DNA from: Klebsiella phage KpLz-2_45
Length of the DNA stretch: 64,000 nucleotides
Sequence record: MN871446.1
Strand: one strand, 5' to 3'
A program made the translations under genes and the position numbers. Under the pieces are notes generated by a model, which did not search any database, was not told where the DNA came from, and was given only the letters and a program-made list of their open reading frames with translations. Positions within the stretch are counted from its first letter, which is position 1; each line of letters opens with the position of its first letter. Of this stretch, positions 1-43,627 are shown piece by piece.

Positions 1-1167
1 AGCGAGGTTGATTTCGTTATTGATAACAATACGTTCCCAATAATACCCGGTACCGGAAGCAATTGAACCACCGTCATCAACTCCCGCGGCGAGATGACCG
101 ATAAAATAACCTGCTCCAGAAACACTTCCGGAGTAATAACCTTTCAGGTAGATCTTTTCTCCCTCAAAGGCAGGTTTACGTGACCGTAATGCATCAAAAG
201 ATTCTACGCCGTAAAATCCCTGTGCGACTTGATCAAGGTTGATACCATAACTAGTGTTAATTTTGGTCGCACCAGTGCTGAGCGCTAACGTTGCCAACAC
301 TTCCGCCGGCGTACCCGATACACTGACGGTAATCTCCGCACGGGAGCCGCCCAGAATGACTTCGACAATGTCATTCGTACTGAGTGCCTTCGCCAGCGAA
401 ATAGTAGTGCTGTTCAATACCTCAAAGTGTTTGTTCAAGATCTGGCGGCTACCGTTAATGTAGATAGCAGTGACGGTCTTAAACGACCACGGCGGCGTTA
501 ATGTCGTTTCACCGCCTACTGCTGCACCGTCGTTATACAACCAGGAAACATTAACATAATCAGTGATACCCGGTTCTACAGGTGTAACAGGCGTACCCGG
601 ATAAGGGCGCGTGTATAATACAACAGTTGCACCTGCTGTCAATGGTCCTGCTAGTTTGACTTTGTTGGTTTCATTATCAAAAGTATAGTTGGTCCCTTTA
701 ATCTGATGACTTCCGTTAAGGAACATTTCACCTATATCGAAACAATCAAAAGGGATCCCAATCTCAGTTTCACCGCCGACAGCAGAACCGTTATTGTACA
801 CGTAAGAGACGTAAGAAGTATACGCACCAAACTGACCACCGCCAATCAATTTCCCGGTACCGTAAATGACCGCTGTACCGTTTTTGTATAAAGCGGTAGC
901 AGAAGCTCCATTGACGTTAACGAAGGCTGCTACGTAGTGCCGAGTGTCGTCTGTGAAGACGTAGAAAATCTCGTCTTTAACGGTATTGGAAATACCGTTT
1001 GCGATGGACGAGTAAGCGTTTTCAAATAAAAGATTAGCACGGATGTCATTAAGAGAAACGCGATAAGTTTCGTTCGTTTGCCCCGCTAATGCGACGGGTA
1101 AAACTGCAGATTCAGGGACTTTCCCTGTACTGACTAATTCAGAAATCTTTTTGCTGTAATTGCTCAT
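1..1167 (-). CDS. Tailspike/tail fibre protein, truncated at the window edge. N-terminal anchor domain and a shared linker module, followed by duplicated ~60-aa GGET repeats
   Basis: Manual reverse translation from the ATG at 1167 gives MSNYSKKISELVSTGKVPESAVLPVALAGQTNETYRVSLNDIRANLLFENAYSSIANGISNTVKDEIFYVFTDD. This is the same N-terminal KISEL...LLFENAY...FYVF domain seen in the four complete tailspikes downstream. Further along, the VESFDALRSRKP...SGTGYYWERIV module matches those at 5449..7493 and 7805..9763. The gene runs off the window start and is absent from the ORF track because no stop lies inside the window. Confidence 0.6.
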   Translation of the reverse strand, partial: MSNYSKKISELVSTGKVPESAVLPVALAGQTNETYRVSLNDIRANLLFENAYSSIANGISNTVKDEIFYVFTDDTRHYVAAFVNVNGASATALYKNGTAVIYGTGKLIGGGQFGAYTSYVSYVYNNGSAVGGETEIGIPFDCFDIGEMFLNGSHQIKGTNYTFDNETNKVKLAGPLTAGATVVLYTRPYPGTPVTPVEPGITDYVNVSWLYNDGAAVGGETTLTPPWSFKTVTAIYINGSRQILNKHFEVLNSTTISLAKALSTNDIVEVILGGSRAEITVSVSGTPAEVLATLALSTGATKINTSYGINLDQVAQGFYGVESFDALRSRKPAFEGEKIYLKGYYSGSVSGAGYFIGHLAAGVDDGGSIASGTGYYWERIVINNEINLA

Positions 1168-1205
1168 TGCAAGAAACCTCGTCTTAGGCAATGGGGAGGA
1201 AAATA

Positions 1206-1220
1206 GTCATAGGAAAACAA
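1206..1220 (-). promoter_or_regulatory. Conserved box TTGTTTTCCTATGAC (minus strand) 41 nt upstream of the ATG at 1167, immediately 3' of the terminator hairpin
   Basis: Variant of the repeated TTGTTTCGTATGAC motif; contains TATG; candidate phage late promoter. Confidence 0.35.
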
Positions 1221-1222
1221 AT

Positions 1223-1248
1223 AGAGAGGAGCCAAAAGGCTCCTCTCT
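1223..1248. terminator. Rho-independent terminator hairpin agagaggagcc-aaaa-ggctcctctct
   Basis: 11-bp perfect stem with a 4-nt loop; T-run on the minus strand after it. Follows the stop of the 1275..2999 gene. Confidence 0.7.
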
Positions 1249-1274
1249 ATAGTTTAAGATCTAGGATGTTATCA

Positions 1275-2999
1275 TTAATTTTGTTCGTACCACTTACCAT
1301 TAAAATAGTTAAACGTAACAATTTCATTTAAAGTAAGAGTGCGAGATGCGGATCCTTTCAAAACAATGGTGCTGTTATTGGCTAACGTAACGTTAGTATT
1401 CGCTGCATGGACCTTGATCTCTTGGGTATTGACGCCCCCAGTAAAGTTAGTTATTGTAGTAGCGGAACTCATGTTAAGGTACAAATAAGAAATACCATCA
1501 ACGGCTAAAGTGGTGCCCGATGTAAAAACCATGGATTTTTTAGACATGTTAAAAGGGCTGCCTAAATAATCATTGTTCTTATATTTTTGAGTACCTACTG
1601 CGGCTTGTACGTTTGGGGCGACCCAGTTATTCCATTGACTGTTAGATGAAGTTGTATCGTTAATCCCGTATCTTGGTGTAGTGCCATCTTGAGAATAAAC
1701 GCCAGCACCGACAAAAGTATTCAAAACACCGGAGACCGAGAAGCCATCATGGGTGTTAGCTGCGGCGGAACCGATACCAATTGCAGTAGGGTTACTGAAA
1801 GTGTTCGTTGAGCCAGTAACAACGAAACCATCACCCATACATCTATCTGCACGCGCCCCTGAAAAACGAGACCGCGTGCCATCGACGTAAATCCCGATTT
1901 CACCAAACTCACCGATAGTATCAGTGATGAAATGATTACTACCGCCGATCCTGAGAGCAACTGCCAATTTATTACCAGCTATAGTACTAAAACCACTTTG
2001 TCCATTAGCTTCGATTCTGAATAAGAAATGATCTGTCCCTAATATATCAACTGCCCCTTTCAATGTAGTGAAATTAGCTCTGTCATACATTGTGTTTAAA
2101 ACAATGATGTCCTGGATTACACAAGCTATAGAGCTAGAGAGGAGGCGTATACCTTGATTCTTTGTACTGTTAACGCCTACATGACTAATTACACAATTGC
2201 CTGAGGCTACTTCTATTCCACAGTCCAAATTAGCCGAACCAATAATAGTTATATTTCTGATGGCTGAGCTATAACCATTAACTACAATACCGCGACCAGA
2301 ATGTGTACACTTAATCGCAGAAGGATCATTCTGTGAATAATTACGCATTCCGTTGATACCAGAAAGATGGTGTCCAGAAGGAATTATAATTTCTTTGCCA
2401 GAGATCCATAACCCTTCGGAAATTTCACAATGGGTCGCGTCAGAAAGAACTTCATTGATCAAGTCACCAAAATCATCGGTGCTAACTCTTAACTTAATAT
2501 CATTGTACTTATTTTTTGTAACTGCGCGAGCTAGTTCAAATTTAGAACCATTACGCATGTCCGATAAAGTAGGTAAATAAAGTCCACCTACGTAATCCGC
2601 AAAACGTAAACTATCAACATCGGATGATAAGGTGGTCGGTAATGTTGCAATTGAACGCACTTGTCTACTTGTTGGTAATCTGACTTGTTCATTGTCATAA
2701 CCCAGAATAGGATTAGCCACACCACTATTATTTTGGTATTGCAACACCCACAATTTCGCCGCGCTTTCATAGACGAAAAATACGTCCCCTGACGCGGTTC
2801 CGTTCAGGCCCGCATCCACAGACAGGAAAGCGTTCTCGAAACCCAGCGTTTGACGAAGGTCGTTAATTTTGGTGGATTTAGTGAAAGGAACCCCTGCACT
2901 GGTTTTGGCGTTAATCGGGACGACGTCATTCTCTTTGATGACGCCTGCGTCACCGAGTTCAGAAATTTTGATTCCGATAGAATCTGAAGTCTTAGGCAT
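1275..2999 (-). CDS. Tailspike with a right-handed beta-helix (pectate-lyase-like) C-terminal domain
   Basis: 574 aa. N-terminal IKISELGD...LRQTLGFENAFLS...FFVYE anchor motif. Downstream repeats such as IVVNGYSSAIRNITIIGSANLDCGIEV...NCVISHVGV are typical beta-helix glycanase/depolymerase repeats. Confidence 0.8.
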   Translation of the reverse strand: MPKTSDSIGIKISELGDAGVIKENDVVPINAKTSAGVPFTKSTKINDLRQTLGFENAFLSVDAGLNGTASGDVFFVYESAAKLWVLQYQNNSGVANPILGYDNEQVRLPTSRQVRSIATLPTTLSSDVDSLRFADYVGGLYLPTLSDMRNGSKFELARAVTKNKYNDIKLRVSTDDFGDLINEVLSDATHCEISEGLWISGKEIIIPSGHHLSGINGMRNYSQNDPSAIKCTHSGRGIVVNGYSSAIRNITIIGSANLDCGIEVASGNCVISHVGVNSTKNQGIRLLSSSIACVIQDIIVLNTMYDRANFTTLKGAVDILGTDHFLFRIEANGQSGFSTIAGNKLAVALRIGGSNHFITDTIGEFGEIGIYVDGTRSRFSGARADRCMGDGFVVTGSTNTFSNPTAIGIGSAAANTHDGFSVSGVLNTFVGAGVYSQDGTTPRYGINDTTSSNSQWNNWVAPNVQAAVGTQKYKNNDYLGSPFNMSKKSMVFTSGTTLAVDGISYLYLNMSSATTITNFTGGVNTQEIKVHAANTNVTLANNSTIVLKGSASRTLTLNEIVTFNYFNGKWYEQN

Positions 3000-3023
3000 T
3001 ATACTACCCTCAAGTGAAAGAAT

Positions 3024-3037
3024 CTCATACGAAACAA
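3024..3037 (-). promoter_or_regulatory. Conserved box TTGTTTCGTATGAG (minus strand) 28 nt upstream of the ATG at 2999
   Basis: Near-identical to the boxes at 5407..5420 and 7767..7780; immediately follows the terminator at 3040..3065. Confidence 0.4.
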
Positions 3038-3039
3038 AA

Positions 3040-3065
3040 GAGAAGAGGGTCGTAGCCCTCTTCTC
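3040..3065. terminator. Terminator hairpin gagaagaggg-tcgtag-ccctcttctc with T-runs on both sides
   Basis: 10-bp perfect stem; TTTTTT 3' on the plus strand and CTTTTGTTT on the minus strand. Confidence 0.7.
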
Positions 3066-3074
3066 TTTTTTAGA

Positions 3075-5288
3075 TTACCAACTAGAAAGAGCAGCTCTTA
3101 CCCAAGTATTAGTTGCAATACAAACGTAGTAATAACTACTATCAGCCGCCCATTGTCCTACAGTACCGGGAGCTGTTGCATTAGCAGGTACTGCGACTTT
3201 AACGCCAACTGGATTCCCTGCCACGGTAACGGCTCTTGAAAAATAACCATCCCGCCACTGAAGAGCACTTGTCCCAAAATCATAAAGGTTCGTCGCATTA
3301 GGGACTACTGTCCCCATGAAGTTGAACTGACTGGCGCCTCCGTTAGCAACAAAATTCATACCGGATAAATAACTGGTTAATGTCATCGGTCCGGTGTTAC
3401 CAAGTAAGATTCTACCCCCTAAAGTCGTGTTACCGTAAGGATAAAAATCCAGTCTCCTGTCTCCACTTGTAGTGTTATTATTTCCTATTTGGAGAATATT
3501 ACCACTGGAGATAGAGGCTGTTGTTTTAATAAGGTAACCGCTTATCGTCCCATCCTGAGCCACCGAAAGAATAGGTGTTGTCGGGTTGAAAGCACCATCT
3601 GTATTGGTGTAATAAATAGAAAGGGCGCTGTTATTATCGCTATCCACATCGATAATAAATTTTCTCGTCGCTACTTTGACGTCGTTAATGATCAGGCCGC
3701 TAGTAATTCTTCTCGTAAAGTTATTGATGGCGCAGTTTATCAGCTGATAAGCTCTTTTACCTTGTGTACTAGCGCTGACGTCAAAGATAGGGGCTACTGT
3801 AGAGTTACCGGAAACTTCAGAGAATGCGCTGGAGAAATAACAGCTATCGAAAACACGCCCGGTATTAGTACTTGTACCAAATCTAATCATTGGTACGTGG
3901 ACAGCGCTGTCATAACCAACTGCGGACTTCCTTAAAGTTTGGAAAGTACATCCAGTGAATTTAATAATCCCTTGGTTGATGAATCCTAATTCGTAAGTGC
4001 CCGCTGAATCTGTTCCGCCAGAACCATTATCGGTAAAAATTACTGTATCGAAATTAAACTGCGTACCGCCGCCCAAATTAAACCATTTTGCACCGTAGAA
4101 GTGAGTCTCAATATGACCGCCTTCAAATTTAATGTTGTGGTGCGTACTGGAGGTAGGAGTTGGGTCTACTTTAATAGCTACGTAGTTTTTAGTGTACGTC
4201 GTTTCAATGTGTGGCCTGATGAACACAATGTTGTTGGAGTTGTCCGTGGCCTGAGGTAAGAAATGAATCCCTGTCGCAGGATTGTTTGTATCATTATCAT
4301 CAACGGCAACAAACCCAGTCATGTAGATACAGTCGAAAACCGCATCGTAACACTGACCGAATGTTAAAGCTTTAGTGGGCGACATGAAGTTAAGGTTTGA
4401 AAATCTTCCACCAACAGCCATTGAGTTAGCGGTTACTTCACTTCCGAGTTTAATGTAATAAGCAAAAATGCCCGGTTCTTTAATAAACGTTAACCCGTCC
4501 ATTTCAAGGCGCCCGCCCGTGAAAGTAAAGAGAAAATCTTTATTCACGTTAGAAGAAATATAAGCACCTTTTCCTAGAATCCTAAACCTTGGTTTTCCAG
4601 TCTCATAGCTGATAGCGCTTAAGTCTTTAACTATTTTACTGTCGAGTCGATATTTACCTGGCGGGAAAAATAACCACCCCGAGGCATATCGTTGAGCGTT
4701 AGAGATATTGATTTCTTTTTGATAAATACATTTATCTATTGCTGCGCTAACTGCCGGAGACCAATCCCAAGTAGAGGGGTCATTAGGATTATCTTTTTTG
4801 GTGACTAGACTTGAAAACTCCCAAATATTGATAGGTAGGCTATTTAATGCTTTAGCCGCGCTCTCCGCGCTTAACTCGATCTCTTTACGTTGATAGCCAA
4901 CTTCATCAGCTCCATTATTAGACATAATTCCATCAACGTCACCACGTATTACTTTTATACCGTAACCGGTATAATTAATTTTAGCAGTACCGTCCGAGTT
5001 AAAAATCTGTTCTGCAACTCCGTTGCGGTTGACATATGCTTTAACTGTCGTTTTTTCTGCATCGACATAAACGTAGAAAATTTGATTAGGGACAGTACCC
5101 GCAAGACCCGCTACTGTCGTAGTGAATGCGTTTTCGAAATTTAGCAGGGAGCGTAAATCAGAAATCTCCATCGCTTTAGATTCGGTTATTCCCGCTTCAT
5201 TCTGAGCGATAAATACGACATCAGAATCATTTACCGGTTTCGATGGTCGATCCATTTCACTGAGTTTTACAAAGATCTCACTGGCCAT
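3075..5288 (-). CDS. Tailspike, pectate-lyase_3-like beta-helix protein
   Basis: 737 aa. N-terminal KLSEM...LRSLLNFENAFTT...IFYVYVD anchor. The segment ...AVSAAIDKC...FFPPGKYRL...GKGAYISSN... is typical of P22-like/pectate-lyase-3 tailspikes. Confidence 0.8.
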   Translation of the reverse strand: MASEIFVKLSEMDRPSKPVNDSDVVFIAQNEAGITESKAMEISDLRSLLNFENAFTTTVAGLAGTVPNQIFYVYVDAEKTTVKAYVNRNGVAEQIFNSDGTAKINYTGYGIKVIRGDVDGIMSNNGADEVGYQRKEIELSAESAAKALNSLPINIWEFSSLVTKKDNPNDPSTWDWSPAVSAAIDKCIYQKEINISNAQRYASGWLFFPPGKYRLDSKIVKDLSAISYETGKPRFRILGKGAYISSNVNKDFLFTFTGGRLEMDGLTFIKEPGIFAYYIKLGSEVTANSMAVGGRFSNLNFMSPTKALTFGQCYDAVFDCIYMTGFVAVDDNDTNNPATGIHFLPQATDNSNNIVFIRPHIETTYTKNYVAIKVDPTPTSSTHHNIKFEGGHIETHFYGAKWFNLGGGTQFNFDTVIFTDNGSGGTDSAGTYELGFINQGIIKFTGCTFQTLRKSAVGYDSAVHVPMIRFGTSTNTGRVFDSCYFSSAFSEVSGNSTVAPIFDVSASTQGKRAYQLINCAINNFTRRITSGLIINDVKVATRKFIIDVDSDNNSALSIYYTNTDGAFNPTTPILSVAQDGTISGYLIKTTASISSGNILQIGNNNTTSGDRRLDFYPYGNTTLGGRILLGNTGPMTLTSYLSGMNFVANGGASQFNFMGTVVPNATNLYDFGTSALQWRDGYFSRAVTVAGNPVGVKVAVPANATAPGTVGQWAADSSYYYVCIATNTWVRAALSSW

Positions 5289-5319
5289 AATTGTACCTTA
5301 CTTTGTCTCTAATAGTCAA

Positions 5320-5334
5320 TTGTACATACGATTG
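5320..5334 (-). promoter_or_regulatory. Degenerate box CAATCGTATGTACAA (minus strand) about 35 nt upstream of the ATG at 5288
   Basis: TCGTATG core shared with the conserved late box; sits in the divergent region between two tailspike genes. Confidence 0.25.
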
Positions 5335-5406
5335 ACAGCTTGAAAGAATACGTTTCGGTTTATTATACATTAACTAGAGAAGGATGCGGAAAAGCTCCTC
5401 TCTTTT

Positions 5407-5420
5407 TTGTTTCGTATGAC
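5407..5420 (+). promoter_or_regulatory. Conserved box TTGTTTCGTATGAC, 31 nt upstream of the ATG at 5449
   Basis: Exact 14-mer repeated at 7767..7780; an imperfect hairpin-like GAGAAGG...CTCCTCTC element precedes it. Confidence 0.45.
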
Positions 5421-5448
5421 CATTTTTATTTACGTTGGAGTTGTGAAA

Positions 5449-7493
5449 TGACCGATATCACTGCATTGAAAATCTCTGAACTATCGCCCAGTTCTAATCC
5501 GTCAGAGAATGCGTTTCTTCCGCTCTCAGAAGCGAACGGAATCGCTTCTGAAAAAGTCAGTATTGGTACCCTCAGAGAAACGTTAGGTTTTGAGAACGCG
5601 TACAGCACGATTGCTGGCGCGCTCAATGTAACTACGGAAGGGAATGTTTTCTTTGTTTACGAAGACAGTACGCGAGACTATGTTTTGGGGTATGTAAACC
5701 AAGGGAACGGAACCTATTCTGCATTAATGTCAGACAGTACGACACAAGTTCGCTACGCGACGAATGCGCATATTGTCAACTCTTTATTCATGTTACAAGG
5801 AGTAGAAAGTTTCGATGCGTTACGTACCCTCAAACCGTGGTACGAAGGACAACGTGTCACGTTGAAGAGTTACTACAAAGACGGGGTTACGGGTGCTGGT
5901 ATCTTCATTGCGCGTTTAGGAGTAAATGCAGATGACAACGGCACGATTGCCGCGGGGAACGGATTCTACTGGCAACGGATTATTTCTGATAAGTTGTCTT
6001 TTGAGGACTTTGGTGCAGTCGGGGGCGGCGTACTGGACGATACTAGTAATATTCAAAAAGCGGTCAACTACTGTGCCAAAAATGGCATTGCACTAACGTG
6101 TTTAGGGAAAGTATACGCGGTCAGTACCGTAAATTTCCCAACCGATTTAGTGATCGATATGCGTAATGCAGTACTTTTGTCGCTGCCCTCTGTTACGACG
6201 GGTTATACCTTAACAATCAGCGGCTATTTGTCACCTGCGGCTAATCCAGGGAAATTTGATAATATTCGCGTTCAGCGTACCTTAATTAATACTCATCAAC
6301 CCGACACTAACAGTGTCGTAGACGGCGTGTCATTTGGTGTCGATGCGCACAATATTTCCTTCTACAATCTTAAGGTCTCTGGGTTTAGGGACGGGGTTTG
6401 TTTTAACGGGAAGAGTGCTTACCTCATTCGTTTATACAGCCCAATCATCGGACAATGTTGGCGCCGAGGGATGGCCTTTTATGCGAATACTGATTCTAAT
6501 GAGAACGTGACTATTTACGGTGGCGTGATTGCAGATTGTTGTAATTTTACTTTCGACGGTACCGGGCTCTACTTATCAGGGAGTGCCTCGAGTATCGATG
6601 TCAGGTTCTTTGGAACCAGTTTTGATTATTGCGACATCTCAGTTGATATTTATCAGTCTAACGTCGAGCTCCACGGTTGTCACTTGGAAAACAATAACAA
6701 CAACCCTCATATTCGACTTTCGTACACCTCAACCAAAAACCAACCCTATCTGATCATGAAAGGGGGAACAATGGGCGGCGGACCGAACGCGAACTCGTGG
6801 AGCGGTATTCCGATAGAAAATAGTACGGGTCGCCCTTACCTCGTCTTCATTACTAACACTGGCGGTGCCCACGTAGATATTGATGGAACTGACACCAGTA
6901 AATACATGACAGGAGTCAGGAGAACTACCGAGATCGTAGGTGTAGAAGGGGATAACTACCAGTTGATCGGGACCTTAAGGGTGAGGAACAAAATGACCTC
7001 TGGAAACATGGATAACGCCAGCCGCCCCATGCGACCTTGTAGTGCTCTTAACGTGATTCTGATCAACCAGTATCAAACTGCCGCATGGACACCGAGTTAC
7101 ACTAACGCAGACCTAACTTATACGATTGATACTACGAATTACTCTAACCCTAATTCACCGCACTCACGAAAAATTACACAAGGAAGCGTACGTAACGTCT
7201 CTTACTGGCAGGACGTGACACTGCGCGGCGGAGATATCTTCCACGCGGAGGCCGAAATCAAAATTACTTCGTTGACGGCTGGTTACGTCGCACTTCGAGT
7301 GGATTTTTACGACTCTGCCGGGAACGTAATACAATCGTCAATCAAATCTGTATCTGCGGTGACGACCGATTGGAATAACGTGTGGGTCTGGTTACGTGCG
7401 CCAAACGGTACAGTCAAGGCAAAAGTTCAAGAGTACTTAAACGGCTTTGTTGGAACAGCATATTTCACCAATGAACACGTTTGGATTTCTTAA
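5449..7493 (+). CDS. Tailspike with a beta-helix C-terminal domain and a C-terminal carbohydrate-binding-like domain
   Basis: The ORF track starts at 5340, but GGAG-N9-ATG at 5449 gives MTDITALKISEL...LRETLGFENAY...FFVYED, matching the shared anchor. The VESFDALRTLKPWYEGQRV...AAGNGFYWQRII linker module is also present. Beta-helix repeats follow (HNISFYNLKVSGFRDGVCFNG...). Confidence 0.8.
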
Positions 7494-7506
7494 GAAGGAA
7501 CTCACT

Positions 7507-7728
7507 ATGTTTCAAGTAGGCGACACCGTTCGCATCCTTTCTTGTCAAACTCGAGAAGACTTAGTTGGGAAAGAAACGACCATCAGTGCACTGGACGCTA
7601 AACTGAAAGATTTGGCTTGGGCAGATATCTACGGAATGGATCAATATATTTCGGTGGTCATCGATACCGATGCACGGTTTATTGCGGCTCAATTGGAACT
7701 CGTAGCCAGTGACATTGAAGGCTCTTAA
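7507..7728 (+). CDS. Small 73-aa protein between two tailspike genes (hypothetical; possible fibre assembly/chaperone)
   Basis: The ORF track starts at 7447 inside the upstream gene. AAGGAA-N8-ATG at 7507 gives MFQVGDTVRIL.... Ends 6 nt before the terminator. Confidence 0.4.
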   Translation: MFQVGDTVRILSCQTREDLVGKETTISALDAKLKDLAWADIYGMDQYISVVIDTDARFIAAQLELVASDIEGS

Positions 7729-7734
7729 GTTATA

Positions 7735-7766
7735 GGCAATGAGGGGACCTAAGTCCCCTCATTGCC
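7735..7766 (+). terminator. Terminator hairpin ggcaatgaggggac-ctaa-gtcccctcattgcc
   Basis: 14-bp perfect stem followed by TTGTTT. Confidence 0.75.
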
Positions 7767-7780
7767 TTGTTTCGTATGAC
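7767..7780 (+). promoter_or_regulatory. Conserved box TTGTTTCGTATGAC, 27 nt upstream of the ATG at 7805
   Basis: Identical 14-mer to 5407..5420; directly abuts the terminator stem. Confidence 0.45.
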
Positions 7781-7804
7781 AATCCTCTTTCAGGAATAAA
7801 AAAC

Positions 7805-9763
7805 ATGTCTAATGAAACACAGAAAATTAGCGAGTTGCTCAATACGTCCATCATTTCAGAGAACACTATTCTTCCCGTAGTTGCTGCTGAAGGTGAGACC
7901 AATTCCATCGATATTATCACTTTACGCTCGGCGTTGTTATTTGATAAAGCGTTTGAGACTAACGCAGCGGGTAATGCAGCGACTAGTAAAAACGATTCTT
8001 ATTTTGTTTATACCGATGCCACCAAAACAGCCGTATTGGGCTGGATGAACCAAGGCGGGGATTCTTACTCGCCTCTCCTCGATATTAATGGTGCACAAAT
8101 CCGTTTTATTGCAGGTCAAACTATTCGAGGTCTGGATTATTTCACAAATGGAGTTAACTCGTTTGCGGATCTGAGAACACTGACTCCGTTGTATTCCGGG
8201 CAACGCATTAAATTAAAGGCTTGGACAGCGGGAGAAAAGACAGGCGGCGGTGAATTTATTGCTGTCTTCGGAACTGCGACTGACGATGCGGGCACTATCG
8301 CGGCCGGAAACGGCTTTTATTGGGAAAGAGTGATCAATGGTGGGCTAAATCCAGAGATGTTTGGTGCTATCGGAAACGGTGTAGTTGACGACAGTAATAG
8401 TTTATCTAAATTTCTACTGGCTTTAGCAAATAGAGCCAAATATTTAACCCCAATAACATTTGTTCCGGCCATAGGTTATCTCAACGGTATCTATAGAATA
8501 ACAAAGACTATTACTGTAGATGGCGGTAAAGTAAGATTAACTACCAACACTGTTGGTTGCATCTTTTGTGACCCTACAGGGACTTACGAAAGTACCGGAT
8601 GTATTAAAGTAACCAATAATTACCTTAACTCTGCTTTTGTTGGACAGTACGCAGCACTATTTGAAAATATTTCTTTCGTCAGTACAGGAAGAACACTCAC
8701 CGCAATTTACGCTGTGAGGGGAGATGCTGTGAGCGGTAATAACGGTGCGTGTCTTCATAATGTTTTTAAATGTTCGTTTAAAGGCTTCAGTAAAATTTTT
8801 ACACATGGACCTGGCGGTTGGGGTTGGAACTGGGCAGGTTGTCAATTTTCTGATAGTACCAATTTGATGGTAATTGAGGATCAAGACGACACTTATGAAA
8901 GGCATAGTTTTGATGGATGTATTTTCCAAAACGGAGGGGTTGCATTTACAATAAATAACCCCGATGGGAAAGTCTATTGGAAAAATGGTTCTATGGACTA
9001 CTGCACCGGCGCAGCTACAATTACCGCCGGTTTCATAGAACTTAATGGTCATTTCGAGTGGACAGCCAGAACCGTAGATTTCATTACACTTTTATCAAGT
9101 AATGCGGCTGCTTCTATCTCGGGTGCAATGTTTATTCGTAACAATACTTCTGGTTCTACCTATTACGTCATTAATCAATACCAAGATAAGCAAGTAAAAG
9201 TAGATAATTTGGTCGTTATATCTGACGGTAATTACATTGCCAATGGAGTACTCTCAAATAGAGAGTTGTTAAAGGGAACAATTTTTGCGCAGAACGACGC
9301 GTCTAAATCTGTGCTCTATCACTCCTCTGATGAAAATCTGATATCGGGAACTACGTCTTACCCTCAAGTAACTTTAACTAACACCACTCAGTTTTCTTAT
9401 TCGGTGGCTGATGGTTCTTTGACGATTAGTTGTTCTGCGGGCGGACAAAGTGGTTTTCTTTACTTAGATGTCCCGGTAAATAATAAAAAATTCTACGCTT
9501 ATAAAATGACGGCGAGTAATACGTCTAATGGTTCTGTGTTCCTAGAAAAAACCGTATTGAATGCAAATAAAGATACGATAAGAACCGATACCAGTTCAGG
9601 TACTACCAGCTGGGCAGCAGGCTCTAGTTCGGTGGCAGGAGGTACTGTGACTCTTTTATCTTTACCTGCGGCGGCGGCTTTTATACGAATTAGATTTAAT
9701 CTCTCAAGTATGACAACAGGAAGTACGTTTACTATCAGTTCATTGAAAACTTTCACTTTTTAA
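7805..9763 (+). CDS. Tailspike with beta-helix domain
   Basis: The ORF track starts at 7739, but the ATG at 7805 gives MSNETQKISELLN...LRSALLFDKAFE...YFVYTD anchor. The shared VNSFADLRTLTPLYSGQRI...AAGNGFYWERVI module and beta-helix repeats follow. Confidence 0.8.
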   Translation: MSNETQKISELLNTSIISENTILPVVAAEGETNSIDIITLRSALLFDKAFETNAAGNAATSKNDSYFVYTDATKTAVLGWMNQGGDSYSPLLDINGAQIRFIAGQTIRGLDYFTNGVNSFADLRTLTPLYSGQRIKLKAWTAGEKTGGGEFIAVFGTATDDAGTIAAGNGFYWERVINGGLNPEMFGAIGNGVVDDSNSLSKFLLALANRAKYLTPITFVPAIGYLNGIYRITKTITVDGGKVRLTTNTVGCIFCDPTGTYESTGCIKVTNNYLNSAFVGQYAALFENISFVSTGRTLTAIYAVRGDAVSGNNGACLHNVFKCSFKGFSKIFTHGPGGWGWNWAGCQFSDSTNLMVIEDQDDTYERHSFDGCIFQNGGVAFTINNPDGKVYWKNGSMDYCTGAATITAGFIELNGHFEWTARTVDFITLLSSNAAASISGAMFIRNNTSGSTYYVINQYQDKQVKVDNLVVISDGNYIANGVLSNRELLKGTIFAQNDASKSVLYHSSDENLISGTTSYPQVTLTNTTQFSYSVADGSLTISCSAGGQSGFLYLDVPVNNKKFYAYKMTASNTSNGSVFLEKTVLNANKDTIRTDTSSGTTSWAAGSSSVAGGTVTLLSLPAAAAFIRIRFNLSSMTTGSTFTISSLKTFTF

Positions 9764-9770
9764 CAGACAT

Positions 9771-9798
9771 AGACAGAGGAGCAGAAGCTCCTCTGTCT
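9771..9798. terminator. Bidirectional terminator agacagaggagc-agaa-gctcctctgtct between convergent genes
   Basis: 12-bp perfect stem; TATTTTCTTT 3' on the plus strand. Confidence 0.75.
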
Positions 9799-9806
9799 TA
9801 TTTTCT

Positions 9807-10373
9807 TTATTCGTCGGTTTGTTCAACCAAAATGAATTTGCTGTCTTCGGTGTTAATCGCTTTACCGGATTCGGTAAGCAGAGAACCACGAGGAATCTTA
9901 CTACCGCCACTACACGTGACGTCAAGGTTACCTGACCAAACGTGACTATTATAAGTCGTACCAGCTTTGGTCTGGATAGTCACAACCGCGGTTTCTCCGG
10001 ACGGAATGAACGGCAGGTAATCGTCCGCATTCGCAATATCTTCAACGTCAATATAGAGACTGTATTTTGCTTTGATCAACGGTAAAAGATCAGCGATTGT
10101 CGATGCTGTTTCCGGCAGGACTAAAGTAGGGCCAACCGACGCCATCAGTTTGTTCAGTTCGATACGGGTGTAAGTAAAGGTCTTACTCCCGGTTACCGGA
10201 GAACGACCTGTAACGAGCACGGAGACACGATCTTCTGTACCCGGTACCGTAGAACCAGTGATGTTACCAAAGCTCAGGTAGCTGGCGTTGAGCGGCGTAG
10301 TGAGGTTATTCTGCTGACTGATCAGATCAGCGAGAATCTCGTATTTGGGACGACCGAATAAATCGACGTACAT
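9807..10373 (-). CDS. Hypothetical protein (188 aa)
   Basis: Complete ORF convergent with the tailspike gene; no recognisable motif. Confidence 0.5.
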   Translation of the reverse strand: MYVDLFGRPKYEILADLISQQNNLTTPLNASYLSFGNITGSTVPGTEDRVSVLVTGRSPVTGSKTFTYTRIELNKLMASVGPTLVLPETASTIADLLPLIKAKYSLYIDVEDIANADDYLPFIPSGETAVVTIQTKAGTTYNSHVWSGNLDVTCSGGSKIPRGSLLTESGKAINTEDSKFILVEQTDE

Positions 10374-18983: not shown

Positions 18984-21900
18984 TTACTGTTCATTATCGT
19001 AGGCTTTCAGCATCTCCTGCTGAATGTTTTCAATAAGAACGTTACCCATCCCAAGGAGTAATGCGGAGTTTACGATACGTGCGTTGATCGCGCGATACGA
19101 GAACTGAAGGTCGATGTCCCACGGTTCTCCGCCAGGCAGTACAGGGTTACGTGTACGGCAAATACCGTTATACACACCACTTACCACCGACTTCTTCTGG
19201 TTACCCACCACCAGTTTATCGCCGTCCCCCATACCACGCTGATGCGTGATATAAATACGAATCGCCATCATATCAATCTCTAACGGCAAACCGTCGATCC
19301 GGCTCGGCGTGAAGACCTGTCCGGTCGGACTCGTTTCTTGCTTGAGTACCTTGACGTTTTTCGCACGAATCGCGTCGTATTTATCCGCCACCTTACGAAC
19401 CGAATCCGACATGTCCTCTTTCTCACCGAAATAGAACACCTCAATCTTCTCAACCGTTCCTACGTGTTTTGCACGAGGGGCTGGGTTACCGAGTCGCGCT
19501 AAGGTTTCCATAGAACTGGCATCAAAGTAATCAAAGTTCGCTGAGATTTCGTCTTCGATAAACGCGAGGGTGTCGTCGATGTCAACGTGTTGTCCTTCGC
19601 TCACCAAATTACGGATTGCCTGATTAAAGTTCACCATCAGGACACGGGTATGCGTCACCAACGTCGCCATCTTCTTAGAGAGCCGTTCTGAAATCAGACT
19701 GGCGTCTTCGAAGGTGTTGTTGTTTTCCATCAACGCGATGTTTGTGGTGATCCCGTTCTTGAACGCGACCTGACCTGGCTCACGCCAGTCTTTCGCAAAG
19801 AACCCCGGATGGTAAGCGATAATGGTATCCTTCTTCACGCTCGCACCGACTTCCAGATCACAACGCATCTCATGCGGGACGGTATGACCTGTCACGATAC
19901 CGAACTTACGTCCAATCTCGATACGGTCTTCACCGAGCGCGGGATCATCGTATTTCACGACAACGTAATTCTTTCCTTTCTCTGTTACCACGCCCTGACC
20001 TTTTGCGCTGGCAGCGAAAAGATCATCATTACGGTGGGCCATCATTAACTCGTAACCCGTGCGGATATAACCGAGGTCATCTCCTACACTGCTTATTTTG
20101 TGGCTACTCTGAATACCGATAAAGTTAACGCGCTTCGGGTCGTCATAAGTCGCAAAGGGTGATACCAATGCGCTAGTAGAAAGGATATTACTAAACCCTT
20201 TCTCTTTACTCAGGTCTTTCTCAGTCCGTGCTGTACCACGTAAACTGGTGAGGTTAGGGTTCGCTGACAGGAAGCAGTTAATCCCAACGTCGCCGTTATC
20301 CACCGAGGATTCAGAACGAATACCAATATCACTCGGATGGAACGCACGGGTACGTCTCGTCATGGAACGCTTACCGCGGCCGCCAGTACCGGAATAAGTC
20401 AGGTTCTCTTTCTCTTTCAGGTTTTGGATAGGGTTAGAATCTTCTACCAGAGAAACAGAGGGATCTTTCTGTATCGCGGACAATACCTCGAACGGTGGGA
20501 AATCCAAAGACGCCCTTGAACTGAGGTTACTGGAAGATTGTCTCCGGACGGCTTCTGAGAAGGTACGGTAGACCGCTCCTGCCATACGCTCGTAACCTTT
20601 GAATAACGAGCCCTCTGAACTCAGGTCACTCGGGTATTCATCGGTCGCCAAGTAAAAGGCGGCTTTCTTCAACAGCGGGATGAACGTGGTGGGTTCGTTC
20701 ATCATCTCCAGGTTCTCTTCTGCGATCGGGTCGATAAAGATTGCATTAAGGTTAGTGAACTCGTAGAGATAGCGTCCTGATAACTGCATGTCAGAAAGCA
20801 GTGCGTTGTAGTTGTCCCGATTGTCCAGTTCTGCAACAGAATAGTTTTTCAGGGCAGCCTTCCACAGAAGCAACGAAGCGTAGATCAAGACATCAGGGTG
20901 TGTCTTTCTTGGGATACGCCAGATCTCATCGGCAAAGACGATCTCGAAGGTATTCGGGTCGGGTTGTACACGCGCCCCTTTCGTTCTCCGTTCCGGCTGA
21001 ATCTCTAACCCTTCTACCATCTGACTGAATCCTTCCAGATAAGCCAATACAATGGCTAACGGGAACTCTTGTCCTAAGATAGAGATTGTCACCAATTCAT
21101 TCGGACGGTCATCTGGGTTAGCTCCAAGGAGTTTTGCGATATGCCCGAGGTTGTCAGCACCGGCGCGCAGGTAACCCTCTTTATCCATCGTGACCGTAGT
21201 TTTCCCGCGTTTTCCTACTGGGATATCCGTTGTTCCATTCCAATCCGGGAAATTTTTCTTGATGTTCTCGTAGTCGAAAATAAACTGTATGCCCACTGCC
21301 TCAAACGAGATGACCTCTTTGGCGATAGCCGAATAGGTTCTGGGCACCGGTTGGGAATCTTTGAACGAGTTACCGTAAACAATTTCCGTCATGATCGGCG
21401 GGTTAGTTAACGCCGCGCGGTTCATGGCATCTTTAAGCCACTCTCCGTAATCGTAACGACGTTTATCGCTGCGGTCGACAAACAGCTTGCCGTAATACGT
21501 GGACAGCGCTACGGTCGATGGAGAGATCTTACGGATGGGTTTATCAAAACGCAATTTGCGCATGAAGTATTTAATCCCACCGATTTTATATTTCCCATTT
21601 TTATCGATGACCGGTAACTGGAAACGAACCGTAGAAGGCGCGCCTTTAACCGGCGAGATTTTCACCGTGTAATCGTAAAGGTCATTTAACGCATCGACTT
21701 GGCGTTCCACTTTAAAGTCGGTAATGGCAAACCCGGCTTTCTGGAAATTAAGGATTAAATTGATCACGTCCTTTTGCATGACTTCTTTAACGTACTTTTG
21801 ATCGAAGTCGATCAAGGTACTTTTTAACATGCTTTTATCTTTGACGTGGGTAATATCCTCGATGACCTTCGGTTCAAAATTCCAGACGACTTCTTTCGGG

Positions 21901-23471
21901 ATCTGTCGGTAGTCTTCCAGCGAAACGCTTTCGTTGAACGGGGAAGGAATAACCTTGTAACTTTCGGCCAAACGAAGATGACGCTTGTACTCGGCATTGC
22001 TAATCAGCCCTTTACTCAGGAGCGATTCTGCTTGGGTTCGAATCCCTGAAACCAAAGGCGATTCCTGAACCGCTTCTTGCGGTGGGTCGATAATGACCTC
22101 TGCGTCAATGTCAGGGGCAGCAACCAGACGAACAGCGCGAGGCGGTTCAGTGGTCTCAATCTCCTCAGTGACGCTCTTAAAGGCATCAACTAACTGCGTA
22201 CGAAGACCGGGTTTCCCTTGGTTAATCTTTTCCCTGAGCGCTTTGACTGTGGTGGTTTTAACGACAGGTTCTTCTGGGTTGTTTTCTTGGGTTTCTGTTT
22301 CCGTTGTTTCCACCACAACCGTTTCTTCCGCGTCACCGGTGATCTCGAGGATTTCACTTTCCCCGGTATTCTCATCCGGGATAGTTTCTTCGATGGTGAC
22401 CTGTTCCTGCACACCGGTCAGCAATTTCAGCGCAGTGATGTGTTGTAGCATCAATCGGGAGATCTGTGCGTAAGCATCGCCTTTCGGGTTAGTTTCTGAT
22501 TTGGTCCATTGGTGAAGCAGGCCCAGATTCAGAACCGTGAATTTCCCCATTCGCATAAAGACGAAATTAATCTTGCTGTAATGTTCGACCGGGATCATGT
22601 TCAACAGCGAGTTTTCCCGTTTCTCAGCAAGCCACTGCCAGAGGTCTTGAATAAAGAGCGCATCGTCATTCTGGAAATACCCGAGACGAATACGATTCAT
22701 CTCTTCCAGTGAAACACCGGACGCCGCAATGAAACTGTCGTCGCTTTCAAAGCCCAGCGCTGACTCATCAAATGCCTCTCGCGCCACGTCAGCCGGTAAC
22801 TCACTCGATAACCCTGGCATATGGAGATCGAAGACATCTGCGTACGAGAGGGCAACGGGACGTGCTCGGAGCTGATTCTGATACGCATTGAGGATAGGGA
22901 TACCCGCATCCTCAACTGAAATGTTTAACTGCATCTTCGTTGGGAGTTCATCCGGGACATTGACCAGAATAAACTGATGGCGGTCAGAATGTTCAGCGTA
23001 GAACTTAGCCTGTCCGTATAACGTAGCGAGCAGGTTTTGGAAACGCCAGAATCGGGCCATCGGTAACGGCAGGTAACGCCACTGCATGGGGATGAGCGAG
23101 TAGTTGGCGACAATCGCAGCGTTACGGTCGTCTAATGCTCTGGCGATATCGGTAACCCGACGGAAACCACGGCGCTTTTGCAACCACGTCCGTTTTAGGT
23201 TAGCAACATTGAACGCTCCTTTCCGACGAGGACTGCCGTTAAAGAGTGTCATTTCCGTAATGTTATCGGCGTAGGGACGTAGTCTTTCTTTTTGGATTGC
23301 GAAGAACGTCTCGTCAGGACCTAAGTCAGTGGCATTACTGGGAAGATAATGGACGATGCTATTCTTAGGGAGAATAAAGTTCTCGACATTGAACGCTCTT
23401 GGGTTAGCCAGTCGCGTTTTATTACGTGTCCCGTAGGACATGTAAAATTGCTGGTATTGAATATTACTCAT
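18984..23471 (-). CDS. Multisubunit RNA polymerase beta-subunit homologue (1495 aa, apparently unsplit)
   Basis: C-terminal [21 protein letters not shown] resembles beta [42 protein letters not shown] resembles [37 protein letters not shown] resembles EGPNIGLINSL. No search was run. Confidence 0.6.
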   Translation of the reverse strand: [1495 protein letters not shown]

Positions 23472-23486
23472 TGCAGAGAAACTCCT

Positions 23487-25118
23487 TTAAGCTTCACCAG
23501 TAATGTTACGTAAGACTAATTGTACGTTATCAACATCCGCGCTCTTAGAGAGAGTACCGCGGGAAGAGAGGAACCATTCTTTACGACCTTTTAGCATTTC
23601 GTATTCAGCAATAGAATCCGAGGCATAGATCGCTGTAAAGGTACAACGGTCGCCATCGAAGTCGGCACCCAATGGAGAGAGATAGCTGACGCCTATCCCC
23701 ATAGAGTTAACGTACTCTACCGATTTGCTTTGATCAGGGAATTCGAAACAAATGAAATCGTCACCCAGTCTCCGCCAGTCGTGGCCGAGTTCAGCTTTTA
23801 CGCTAGAAACAATAGTCGGTTTGCAGTAAATGTTTGCTATGAAAGTCGACCCTTGTCCTGTAACAGGGTAACGAGTCACTACGCCTGCTAACTTACCCCA
23901 TTCACGATACCCGGACAGGTAATAAAGCGAGGTCATGTTAATCGGGCTAACAAACCGCTTATCAAAACCCGCTGGGAGTTCGTTGATATCAGCGAAGAAC
24001 CGGAACCCTTCTTCACCCCAATAGAGCAGTCCTAAGTAATAACCGTCTATTAAAATTGGTTTATTTCTGAAAGCCGGGGTTTTATAGCGGGTGATCTGGG
24101 CATCTAAACCGTCACGGGTTGTCCAACGTTCAACGGCCTCCGGGGAGGGCTGTACGTATTCAGCACGGAGAGTTTTGGGGTTCGTCAAACGGATTTCATC
24201 TTCGCTGTTACCCGAGAAAACTTCACCTAGCCAACCTGAGCGTAAGAAATAGCGTGTCTTAGGCAGGACCGCTTTGATGGTCTGGTAGAGCCCTAACTGA
24301 ACGTGGTTGATCCCTGGCGTATTCGTTTCACCGATCCGAGTCCCTGTGATCTTCATTGGCGAAATAACGTTTGCTGTACCGTTAATGATTTTACGTGACG
24401 CCCATTTCGCAGCCGCAAAACCTTTCTTTCCTTTAATCATGTTAAAGATACTTTCGAATATCTCGTTGAACTGTCGTTGTAATTGTAAACGACTGTTATT
24501 GATTAAAGGGTCTTCAGAAGGCTCACGACCCATCTCCAGACTGTTGGAGATTGAGATGATAGAACGATAGAATTTGTTGATTTCGTCTTCACTCGTACGC
24601 CCTGAGGTTTCTACCATCAGATCACGCAGACCTGCCGGCATGACCAGGACTTTATCAGTCAGCGCTTTGTCTTTATTTTTGTTGATGAGCTTCACGCGGA
24701 GATTACGGAGTTCGGAATCGCCTTCTTCTAATTTCAAATCGGGGAAATGACGTACAAAAAAGGAGAAGCCGGTTTCGCCCTCCATTTCGTTGCTGGGTTC
24801 GAAATCGAAGGTTTCTGTGTTAAAGACGGCATAACGTCGCCCTTCCAGAATATCCAAATAAAGACGTTTTAATGAACCGAGTCGTTTATAAACGAGCGGG
24901 TGAAAAACACGGGTATGGAGTTCGATATAACTGAAACGCCCATCGCGTTCAGGTGAACCTAAGGGACCGAATGTTTCTACTGAGAATAAACCGTCCTTAT
25001 GGAAATTACGGGTACCGGTTTCAAAGATCTCGGTCGTACTGGTCGGTCGCATACTCCGTATCAGTTGAGGGGTTAAATCCATGAGGAAGATATTGAATGG
25101 GATATCGTTAGTACGCAT
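23487..25118 (-). CDS. RNA polymerase beta' N-terminal fragment homologue (543 aa)
   Basis: ...SPLGADFDGDRCTF... about 70 aa from the C-terminus matches the universal beta' catalytic NADFDGD motif. The size and motif position fit a phiKZ-type split beta' N-terminal piece. Confidence 0.65.
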   Translation of the reverse strand: MRTNDIPFNIFLMDLTPQLIRSMRPTSTTEIFETGTRNFHKDGLFSVETFGPLGSPERDGRFSYIELHTRVFHPLVYKRLGSLKRLYLDILEGRRYAVFNTETFDFEPSNEMEGETGFSFFVRHFPDLKLEEGDSELRNLRVKLINKNKDKALTDKVLVMPAGLRDLMVETSGRTSEDEINKFYRSIISISNSLEMGREPSEDPLINNSRLQLQRQFNEIFESIFNMIKGKKGFAAAKWASRKIINGTANVISPMKITGTRIGETNTPGINHVQLGLYQTIKAVLPKTRYFLRSGWLGEVFSGNSEDEIRLTNPKTLRAEYVQPSPEAVERWTTRDGLDAQITRYKTPAFRNKPILIDGYYLGLLYWGEEGFRFFADINELPAGFDKRFVSPINMTSLYYLSGYREWGKLAGVVTRYPVTGQGSTFIANIYCKPTIVSSVKAELGHDWRRLGDDFICFEFPDQSKSVEYVNSMGIGVSYLSPLGADFDGDRCTFTAIYASDSIAEYEMLKGRKEWFLSSRGTLSKSADVDNVQLVLRNITGEA

Positions 25119-43249: not shown

Positions 43250-43627
43250 TTATGACACTGCCGACAACGAATGCATGTTGACAATATTTTTCAGTTCCTG
43301 ACGAAGTGTGAACTCGCCATCCTCCACGCCTTCTTTTAACCAGCGGGGGATCATCTCTTCGAAGTAATTAGCGACCTTTTCGTGCGGTAAGGTTCTAATC
43401 GCTTCGCACTGTTTTTCATCCCAAAGAATCTCAGGGAGAATCGTACCTAGCAATAATCCTTTGGAATCCGTTGTCAAGTTTAAGCGACGATTCATACTCG
43501 AAGCTAATCGTTGACATCCACCCGAACGACCAGAGAGTAGCGTGTAAAAAGAACCCAATATTAAAACACGTCGACCTTTCGTCGTAAAGAGTTTAGGTCC
43601 GAAGACCGCTAAAAGTATTTTGATCAT
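43250..43627 (-). CDS. Hypothetical protein (125 aa)
   Basis: ORF only. Confidence 0.4.
   Translation of the reverse strand: MIKILLAVFGPKLFTTKGRRVLILGSFYTLLSGRSGGCQRLASSMNRRLNLTTDSKGLLLGTILPEILWDEKQCEAIRTLPHEKVANYFEEMIPRWLKEGVEDGEFTLRQELKNIVNMHSLSAVS

Follow-up and report, generated by a model that had tools for sequence, protein, structure and literature searches.

Five tail-fiber genes at the locus

A 64,000-nucleotide (nt) stretch of Klebsiella phage KpLz-2_45 (sequence record MN871446.1), referred to here as the window, begins with five consecutive large open reading frames (ORFs), three on the minus strand and two on the plus strand, which were confirmed from the ORF list and the translations. 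On sequence comparison, the phage is a Klebsiella jumbo myophage of the phiKp24-like (Maaswegvirus) type, and the five genes make up the right-hand end of its tail-fiber, or receptor-binding-protein, array; they share an N-terminal domain, referred to as the anchor. An interpretation of the same DNA made without database searches (the sequence-only reading) had proposed five consecutive tailspike genes at this place; all five ORFs exist, with the start of gene 4 mended by a frame check from 5449 to the ATG at 5448. The genes, their parts, and the flanking gene are listed below, with residues counted in amino acids (aa) and anchor groups, or slots, numbered after the phiKp24 genes.

1..1167, minus strand: gene 1, partial; the first 389 aa of a predicted hub fiber, orthologue of phiKp24 gp306 (translation, slot-306 anchor cluster).
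856..1167, minus strand: N-terminal anchor of gene 1, aa 1-104 (BLASTP, profile).
619..822, minus strand: first T4 gp10-like (XD) branching domain of gene 1, aa 116-183 (PDB sequence matches; boundaries from a hidden Markov model, HMM).
343..567, minus strand: second gp10-like domain of gene 1, aa 201-275 (HMM; internal repeat 38% identical to the first copy).
1..261, minus strand: connector of gene 1, PF27114 Phage_tail_beta type, aa ~303-389, cut by the window edge (BLASTP, profile).
1275..2999, minus strand: gene 2, 574 aa (ORF); slot-307 anchor at aa 1-114 (nt 2658-2999), then a beta-helix at aa ~160-460 and a C-terminal beta-sandwich, both predicted with AlphaFold2 (AF2).
3075..5288, minus strand: gene 3, 737 aa; slot-308 anchor (nt 4968-5288) and, by homology, a K46/KL146-type catalytic module.
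5448..7493, plus strand: gene 4, 681 aa; slot-309 anchor (5448-5762), connector (5763-6047) and, by homology, a K61-type catalytic module.
7507..7728, plus strand: small ORF, 73 aa, linked to the K61-type module; corresponds to gp311 of phiKp24, with a Shine-Dalgarno-like AAGGA upstream.
7805..9763, plus strand: gene 5, 652 aa; slot-310 anchor (7805-8113), connector (8114-8398), and a predicted tailspike beta-helix with a C-terminal beta-sandwich resembling a carbohydrate-binding module (8399-9760).
9807..10373, minus strand: DUF7941 virion structural protein (PF25613, E 1.8e-16), outside the array.

The N-terminal domain common to all five genes, already seen in the sequence-only reading, is ~105 aa long. 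Residues ~1-105 aligned in 10 of 10 BLASTP pairs (31-40% identity, 45-65 bits), and all five proteins match phrog_27731 over positions 1-110. In a leave-one-out comparison, each N-terminus scored 77-86 bits against a profile of the other four, with 12.3 bits for the best of 500 shuffles, which corresponds to E <= 1e-16 even when scaled to a database of 1.84e9 proteins. The second module (VESFDALR...GFYWERI), likewise expected in three genes, was found at 44-56% identity in gene 1 (aa ~303-389), gene 4 (aa ~99-200), and gene 5 (aa ~97-198). It matches residues 157-256 of WceF, residues ~187-326 of Depo32 and DpK2, and residues 258-364 of tailspike protein 2 (TSP2) of phage CBA120, and its PF27114 Phage_tail_beta label comes only from precomputed hits on near-identical proteins (97% to gene 5; gp310). 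Judged by these matches, it is a widespread connector ahead of the beta-helix and not a lineage-specific module. Neither the N-terminal domain nor the second module was found in the other ORFs of the 64-kb window. Beyond aa ~230, no significant BLASTP alignment exists between any pair of the four complete proteins, and the claim of unrelated C-terminal beta-helix modules holds in part: the sequences are unrelated beyond this point, and a beta-helix is predicted from models for genes 2 and 5 and from homology for genes 3 and 4, while the visible 389 aa of gene 1 contain none, the rest of that protein lying outside the window.

Gene 1 carries two gp10-like domains behind a slot-306 anchor and is thus, by its domain content, a gp306-type hub and not a plain spike. 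Its aa 1-386 are 90% identical to a 1019-aa protein of phage MJ359 and 71% identical to FBKp24 (phiKp24) gp306; its C-terminal remainder and the left part of the array extend beyond the left window edge, where, going by the relatives, the slot-301 hub and 3-4 anchor-less fibers would be expected. Residues 103-286 match PDB entries 9d80_D (E 6e-31) and 9d83_D, CBA120 TSP2 (6w4q, E 5.5e-12), and the N-terminal region of TSP4 (7rej, E 3e-11; 7rfo); a literature search on PDB codes 9D80 and 9D83 returned nothing relevant. In CBA120, T4 gp10-like domains are the docking points for other spikes. By HMM, gp306 orthologues carry two such domains and gp301 orthologues one, and none was found elsewhere in the window or in related loci.

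Phage phiKp24 (vB_KpM_FBKp24) was first described with nine host-binding proteins (PMC8386662). A later study assigned it fourteen putative tail fibers, found a regular, complex fiber structure by electron microscopy, and proposed a 'hyperbranched' layered model with gp306 as the primary fiber and T4 gp10-like folds in gp306 and gp301 as docking sites (Ouyang et al. 2022, PMC9700779). Depolymerase activity has been confirmed for 11 of the 14 fibers, including KP24gp306 (YP_010298943) on KL137, gp307 on KL114, KP24gp308 (YP_010298945) on K46/KL146, gp309 on KL158, and KP24gp310 (YP_010298947) on K61; the same catalog characterizes a second Maaswegvirus, KluzKp13 (DepoCatalog 2026, PMC13385381). 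The accessions in DepoCatalog are those of the FBKp24 features, so that gene numbers can be equated between the two sources.

Genes 3 and 4 each have a counterpart among the depolymerases whose activity was measured; overall identity is 84-85% and rises to 91-99% in the catalytic part. Peptide probes from the two genes find KP24gp308 and KP24gp310 in the DepoCatalog supplement. By homology, they are K46/KL146-type and K61-type depolymerases, respectively. Gene 3 is 99.5% identical to a protein of phage LPKP23 and 84% identical to FBKp24 gp308 (91% in the central domain). It has no PDB match by sequence, and the hits of its family profile are limited to an S74 chaperone region that relatives possess and gene 3 lacks. 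The anchor of gene 4 is 68.6% identical to that of gp309 and 37% to that of gp310, while aa 181-681 are 98-99% identical to gp310; in a profile search, gene 4 matched Depo32, DpK2, WceF, and CBA120 TSP2 via the connector. The beta-helix fold of both proteins is taken from homology to published models. When the gene 3 family was compared with the gene 4 and gene 5 families using hhalign, the anchor aligned convincingly and the beta-helix part aligned over 339 columns at 83% probability, which is not decisive. The 73-aa ORF behind gene 4 has no Pfam or PHROG match. It is 99-100% conserved, occurs only directly after the K61-type module (FBKp24 gp311, KpSz_1, KpYy_2_45), and is absent in relatives without that module; it may be a fiber-specific assembly factor.

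For genes 2 and 5, the structures were predicted from alignments trimmed of unrelated C-termini, and both are predicted to adopt beta-helix tailspike folds. The gene 2 model is of moderate quality (mean predicted local distance difference test score, pLDDT, of 64). Its top Foldseek hits in the PDB are all right-handed beta-helices, namely PfbA, TSP2, AlgE4, the Det7 and HK620 tailspikes, and PL6 lyases, at E 1.6e-4 or weaker, and in BFVD it matches RaK2 H6X4Y8 (E 1.6e-11) and a KpV2883 fiber protein. A sequence search with gene 2 gave no PDB match, and a weak PF25692 match covers aa 500-571. Gene 2 is 98% identical to a KpSz_1 protein and has the anchor alone in common with LPKP23, MJ359, KpYy_2_45, and FBKp24. 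The gene 5 model is mostly above a pLDDT of 80 over aa 230-652, and its PDB hits include the K2-2 tailspike (8iq5, E 2e-17), Kp7 gp52, CBA120 TSP4 and TSP2, Depo32, and DpK2, with the last ~135 aa matched by carbohydrate-binding modules. Gene 5 is 97% identical to a protein of phage Centimanus.

Relatives, anchor groups, and exchanged modules

Bases 10001-34000 are 98.8-99.6% identical to LPKP23, MJ359, KpXa_1, KpYy_2_45, and KpSz_1 over 98-100% of the length, and ~77% identical to FBKp24 and Centimanus. Matches to bases 1-10000 are patchy and confined to a small group of ~300-kb Klebsiella jumbo phages, with coverage of 72% by KpSz_1 (94% identity), 41% by LPKP23, and 19% by FBKp24; deposited genomes whose backbones are 99% identical cover 15-72% of the fiber array. 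The near-isogenic genomes (LPKP23, vB_kp_MJ359, KpSz_1, KpZh_1, KpYy_2_45, KpXa_1) share the backbone and single cassettes with KpLz-2_45 and differ in the combination. The combination of cassettes described here occurs in no deposited genome, the closest being KpSz_1, which covers the 72% given above and has genes 2, 4, and 5 in common at 96-98% identity. Several of these Klebsiella-host genomes (KpSz_1, KpZh_1, KpYy_2_45, KpXa_1) carry the deposited name 'Serratia phage'.

The array shares synteny with FBKp24 gp306-gp312 and stops at the DUF7941 gene, which forms the right-hand boundary in FBKp24, LPKP23, MJ359, Centimanus, and L007 alike. In the annotated FBKp24 record, the fiber genes are split six to five between the strands, and terminators are marked between genes; LPKP23 has nine and MJ359 ten in the same layout, and a distant metagenomic relative has a single plus-strand fiber gene. 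This boundary gene, together with the longer arrays of the relatives, indicates that the window covers the right-hand end of a larger array. Five fiber genes in a row, which the sequence-only reading considered unusual, are no exception in this lineage, where relatives carry 9-11 at the locus and 14 are reported genome-wide for phiKp24.

With an HMM built from the five N-termini, 7-8 array genes, including both hubs, were found to carry the domain in each related phage with a complete array; some array members lack it (e.g., the gp303 and gp304 orthologues). Clustering divides the anchors into about six orthologous groups, in which a phage is generally represented once; identities are 57-94% inside a group and average 35% between groups. 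The five genes of the window fall into five different groups, inside each of which protein lengths vary widely. In place of the single shared anchor first proposed, the locus thus has five paralogous anchors, each closer to its own orthologues than to its neighbors. A profile search of 1.84e9 representative proteins returned 131 members with the domain, which starts within 30 residues of the N-terminus in 154 of 157 fetched carriers. Among sequenced phages, tblastn matches to the anchor were confined to two sets, phiKp24-like phages with 5-7 copies per genome and ~275-kb jumbo phages of Serratia and Pectobacterium with 2-4. No Pfam match was obtained for any of the five N-termini, and the profile gave only chance-level hits against the PDB. 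From the conservation pattern, we infer that each diverged paralogue fits its own docking position. In a metagenomic protein, P0183 (950 aa), the anchor's second half (HMM positions ~51-95) occurs four times in the interior, in place of a single N-terminal copy; these repeats suggest that this half may be an independent small fold.

Genome comparison shows that the array evolves by exchange of enzyme modules, also between slots, with junctions where the anchor or the connector ends, which bears out the proposal of module swapping at the anchor/linker boundaries. Against six relatives, the DNA breakpoints fall at codons ~93-114 (anchor end) and ~161-187 (connector end), i.e., at window positions 2658, 5010, 5931/5977, and 8326-8367. 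The anchor of gene 2 is 97% identical to that of LPKP23 and 86% to that of gp307, with 24% identity in the rest of the protein, and the DNA match ends at 2658 in three phages and at 2665 in FBKp24 (codon ~114). In metagenomes, at least a dozen different C-termini follow this anchor (58-95% identity), and the gene 2 enzyme module is also found behind an unrelated N-terminus. Gene 3 has its anchor in common with MJ359 and KpYy_2_45 up to position 5010 (codon ~93). Gene 4 is a chimera of a gp309-type anchor and a gp310-type catalytic part, with the breakpoint at 5931-5977, at the connector end; the K61-type module therefore follows a slot-309 anchor in this phage and a slot-310 anchor in phiKp24. 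In gene 5, an anchor 61% and a connector 75% identical to those of gp310 are followed by an unrelated enzyme, and Klebsiella prophages carry this enzyme joined to different anchors (PF12571, PF18668). Recent transfer is indicated by catalytic modules with 98-99% identity across phages whose backbones are 77% identical. The window also encodes recombination genes of its own, all on the minus strand: a UvsX-like recombinase (40813..42228), a ribonuclease/RNase H-like protein (43624..45282), and an SbcC-like nuclease subunit (49373..51844). This phage-encoded machinery could mediate cassette exchange.

Intergenic elements and the orientation of gene 3

The spaces between the fiber genes hold a recurrent element, composed of a terminator-like hairpin and a short motif close to the next start codon. 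The sites found by a hairpin scan and by alignment of the upstream regions are as follows.

1208..1250, minus strand: terminator-like hairpin (1221-1250), then TTGTTTTCCTATGA, 47 nt upstream of the gene 1 ATG (hairpin scan, upstream alignment).
3026..3069, minus strand: hairpin (3036-3069), then TTTGTTTCGTATGA, 33 nt before the ATG of gene 2; forms the left arm of inverted repeat I5 (hairpin scan, upstream alignment).
5325..5331, minus strand: TCGTATG motif without a preceding hairpin, 43 nt before the ATG of gene 3 (upstream alignment).
5378..5418, plus strand: degenerate hairpin, then TTTGTTTCGTATGA, 36 nt before the ATG of gene 4; forms the right arm of inverted repeats I1 and I5 (hairpin scan, upstream alignment).
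7734..7778, plus strand: hairpin with a 15-bp stem (7734-7767), then TTGTTTCGTATGA, 33 nt upstream of the gene 5 ATG (hairpin scan, upstream alignment).
9771..9798, no strand assigned: bidirectional terminator-like hairpin closing the array (hairpin scan).

The five aligned upstream regions have an invariant TCnTATGA core in TTGTTTCGTATGA, 33-47 nt ahead of each start codon. The 10-mer GTTTCGTATG has exactly three occurrences in the window, every one ahead of a fiber gene. Of the eight TC(G/C)TATG sites in the 128 kb of both strands, five are those upstream of the fiber genes. The element is also found ahead of array genes in all relatives. Strong hairpins follow genes 3, 2, and 5 and the 73-aa ORF behind gene 4; in total, 16 terminator-like sites were observed against 8.9 expected by chance. 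Genes 3 and 4, each the first in its direction, have no good hairpin in front of them, which fits a layout of terminator, then promoter. Host-type promoters found no support as signals of the array, sigma-70-like sites not being enriched (23 found, 21 expected).

The late promoters of phage phiKZ have the consensus TATG, whose final G is the transcription start (PMC4666361), and the core TATG of the upstream element equals this consensus. Two large genes at 18984..25118 (minus strand) are the counterparts of genes annotated as RNA polymerase beta subunits in FBKp24, LPKP23, and MJ359. The consensus match, taken with the phage's own multisubunit RNA polymerases, suggests that each fiber gene probably has its own putative late promoter. 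The two divergent transcription units of the sequence-only reading would then give way to what are probably five separately promoted genes, each preceded by a TC(G/C)TATG motif.

The gene 3 cassette aligns in inverted orientation to FBKp24 (3025-5336 against 17678-15369), and the gene 3 orthologue lies on the opposite strand in both FBKp24 and MJ359. In either orientation, the cassette is flanked by oppositely oriented copies of the hairpin/motif element; here, inverted repeat I5 (3025-3043 and 5401-5419, 95% complementary) flanks it. It is plausible that the cassette was inverted by recombination between inverted copies of the element.

A proposed cassette array for a branched fiber

These observations can be rationalized by a model in which each gene would be a self-contained cassette. 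The cassette would start with the terminator-like hairpin of the upstream gene and a promoter-like TC(G/C)TATG motif 33-47 nt before the start codon, continue with an anchor of ~105 aa, in some genes a Phage_tail_beta connector of ~90 aa, and a variable beta-helix capsule depolymerase, and end in a C-terminal beta-sandwich or fiber-like tip; in the hub, gene 1, two T4 gp10-like domains would follow the anchor. All fibers would be mounted jointly on one virion as a branched bundle, with the five anchor paralogues each at its own docking position, and each enzyme would open a different capsule type and so widen the host range. Whole cassettes would be invertible by recombination between oppositely oriented hairpin/promoter elements. 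The physical branched assembly is known only for phiKp24, from electron microscopy and modeling. The branched multi-depolymerase apparatus envisaged in the sequence-only reading is supported by the synteny with phiKp24, the gp10-like domains of gene 1, the models of genes 2 and 5, and the 84-85% identity of genes 3 and 4 to active enzymes.

Several points weigh against parts of this model. The anchor has no match in the PDB or Pfam, and AF2 confidence for it is low to moderate. By sequence, three gp10-like domains are detectable per genome, against 7-8 anchor-bearing fibers, so that it is the conservation pattern that argues for slot-specific docking. The gene 2 model (pLDDT 64) has the adhesin PfbA as its top PDB hit, and catalysis by genes 2 and 5 is putative. 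Finally, the TC(G/C)TATG motif could be a remnant of cassette duplication instead of a promoter. Since PfbA, at E 1.6e-4, is the best that the PDB offers for gene 2, genes 2 and 5, or one of the two, might encode binding-only beta-helix adhesins and not depolymerases; neither gene has a Pfam catalytic family above threshold or an identified catalytic residue, and their probe peptides find no match in the text of the DepoCatalog supplement. We consider this unlikely, because gene 5 matches enzymatically characterized Klebsiella tailspikes (E 2e-17) and has the sequence GAIGNGVVDDS, a motif with which pectate-lyase-like spikes typically start, and because 11 of the 14 phiKp24 fibers were active when assayed (PMC13385381).

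The docking step has alternatives of its own. Given that all five anchors are homologous and that three detectable gp10-like docking domains per genome face 7-8 anchored fibers, the anchors might compete for the same or a few sites, and virions would then carry different fiber subsets, as a mixed population and not as a fixed hyperbranched bundle. Identities of ~35% between paralogues, yet 57-94% with orthologues that generally occur once per phage, would be unexpected for interchangeable anchors, and the fiber structure seen in phiKp24 by electron microscopy is regular and complex (PMC9700779), making such competition quite improbable. More improbable still is that the shared domain has no part in attachment and acts as a handle for trimerization, folding, or an assembly chaperone, or as a targeting signal in this nucleus-forming phage, with attachment residing elsewhere. 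This reading draws on the lack of any structural or sequence link to known attachment domains, the function having been deduced from position; that position, however, is almost always the extreme N-terminus of beta-helix fibers (within the first 30 residues in 154 of 157), and the domain is kept while the downstream parts are exchanged, as in known virion-anchoring domains. The gp303 and gp304 orthologues, which do without the domain, indicate that it is not generally needed for fiber folding. As a whole, the explanation that we favor, a cassette array with a gp306-type hub, slot-specific anchors, and swapped depolymerases on a branched fiber, appears very likely to be correct.

Three known systems resemble this array. 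The likeness is closest to the tail-fiber system of phiKp24 (gp300-gp313), which has the same locus, flanking genes, anchor family, and gp10-like hub (gene 1 corresponding to gp306), and terminators annotated between its fiber genes; gene 3 is the orthologue of gp308 (84%), the catalytic part of gene 4 is 98-99% identical to gp310, and the 73-aa ORF is gp311. The two phages differ in that the backbone is 77% identical, the gene 3 cassette is inverted here, the catalytic module of gp309 is absent here and those of genes 2 and 5 are absent in phiKp24, the K61-type module occupies slot 309 here where phiKp24 has it in slot 310, and there are two plus-strand fiber genes here compared with five. 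The Ackermannviridae (CBA120, Det7; TSP1-4) likewise have T4 gp10-like XD hub domains, with gene 1 matching TSP2 (6w4q) and the TSP4 N-terminal region (7rej), and conserved N-termini with swapped beta-helix enzymes, and the connector matches TSP2 residues 258-364. In the CBA120-type complex, secondary spikes attach via a TSP1/Gp66-type N-terminal domain (PF18668), whereas the ~105-aa anchor has no detectable similarity to that domain or to solved structures. KpLz-2_45 also has more fibers and belongs to another lineage, that of a jumbo phage with its own multisubunit RNA polymerases. Finally, Alcyoneusviruses (phiK64-1, RaK2) have many depolymerase fibers in one Klebsiella jumbo-phage array, and the gene 2 model resembles a RaK2 structural protein; their anchors are different, and the anchor family of the window was not found there by tblastn. 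Relatives of the gene 3 catalytic module occur in the 350-kb phage RCIP0023, a putative Alcyoneusvirus relative whose homologue ends in an S74 chaperone domain that gene 3 lacks.

Other genes of the window may also belong to the tail. Two adjacent paralogues at 53488..54843 and 54856..57099 (minus strand), 30% identical to each other, match virion/tail PHROGs and contain fiber-like internal repeats. They were considered as a docking platform and rejected, having no PDB hit and no BLAST similarity to the gp10-like domains of gene 1; they could be baseplate or fiber components. The 2197-aa protein encoded at 25163..31756 (plus strand) is a full-length match to phrog_3201 ('tail fiber protein') and includes, at aa 1820-2107, a region resembling transglycosylases; its FBKp24 homologue is annotated as a tail fiber with transglycosylase activity.

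In kind, the system was already known, and what is new is one more combination of known and uncharacterized capsule-degrading modules. Slot-specific paralogy, movement of enzymes between slots, per-gene elements, and cassette inversion are modest refinements of the published system; neither these nor an address code were found stated in the phiKp24 publications consulted. In such a code, the anchors would form about six classes of addresses with fixed positions, the enzymes would be movable between addresses, and the hairpin plus TTGTTTCGTATGA element would double as a site of recombination and inversion. We hold this tentatively, at slightly less than an even chance; if true, this lineage would offer an addressable plug-and-play scaffold of natural origin, on which a single phage can mount many depolymerases.

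Nothing in this analysis alters the present understanding of how such phages function. Near-isogenic phages, with 99% identical backbones, differ almost solely in which enzyme stands behind which anchor, and the new combination of cassettes described here has two specificities predictable by homology (K46/KL146 and K61). Slot-specific anchors and defined breakpoints provide concrete junctions for engineering fiber swaps, and jumbo phages with multiple depolymerases are candidates for broad-host-range therapy against encapsulated Klebsiella.

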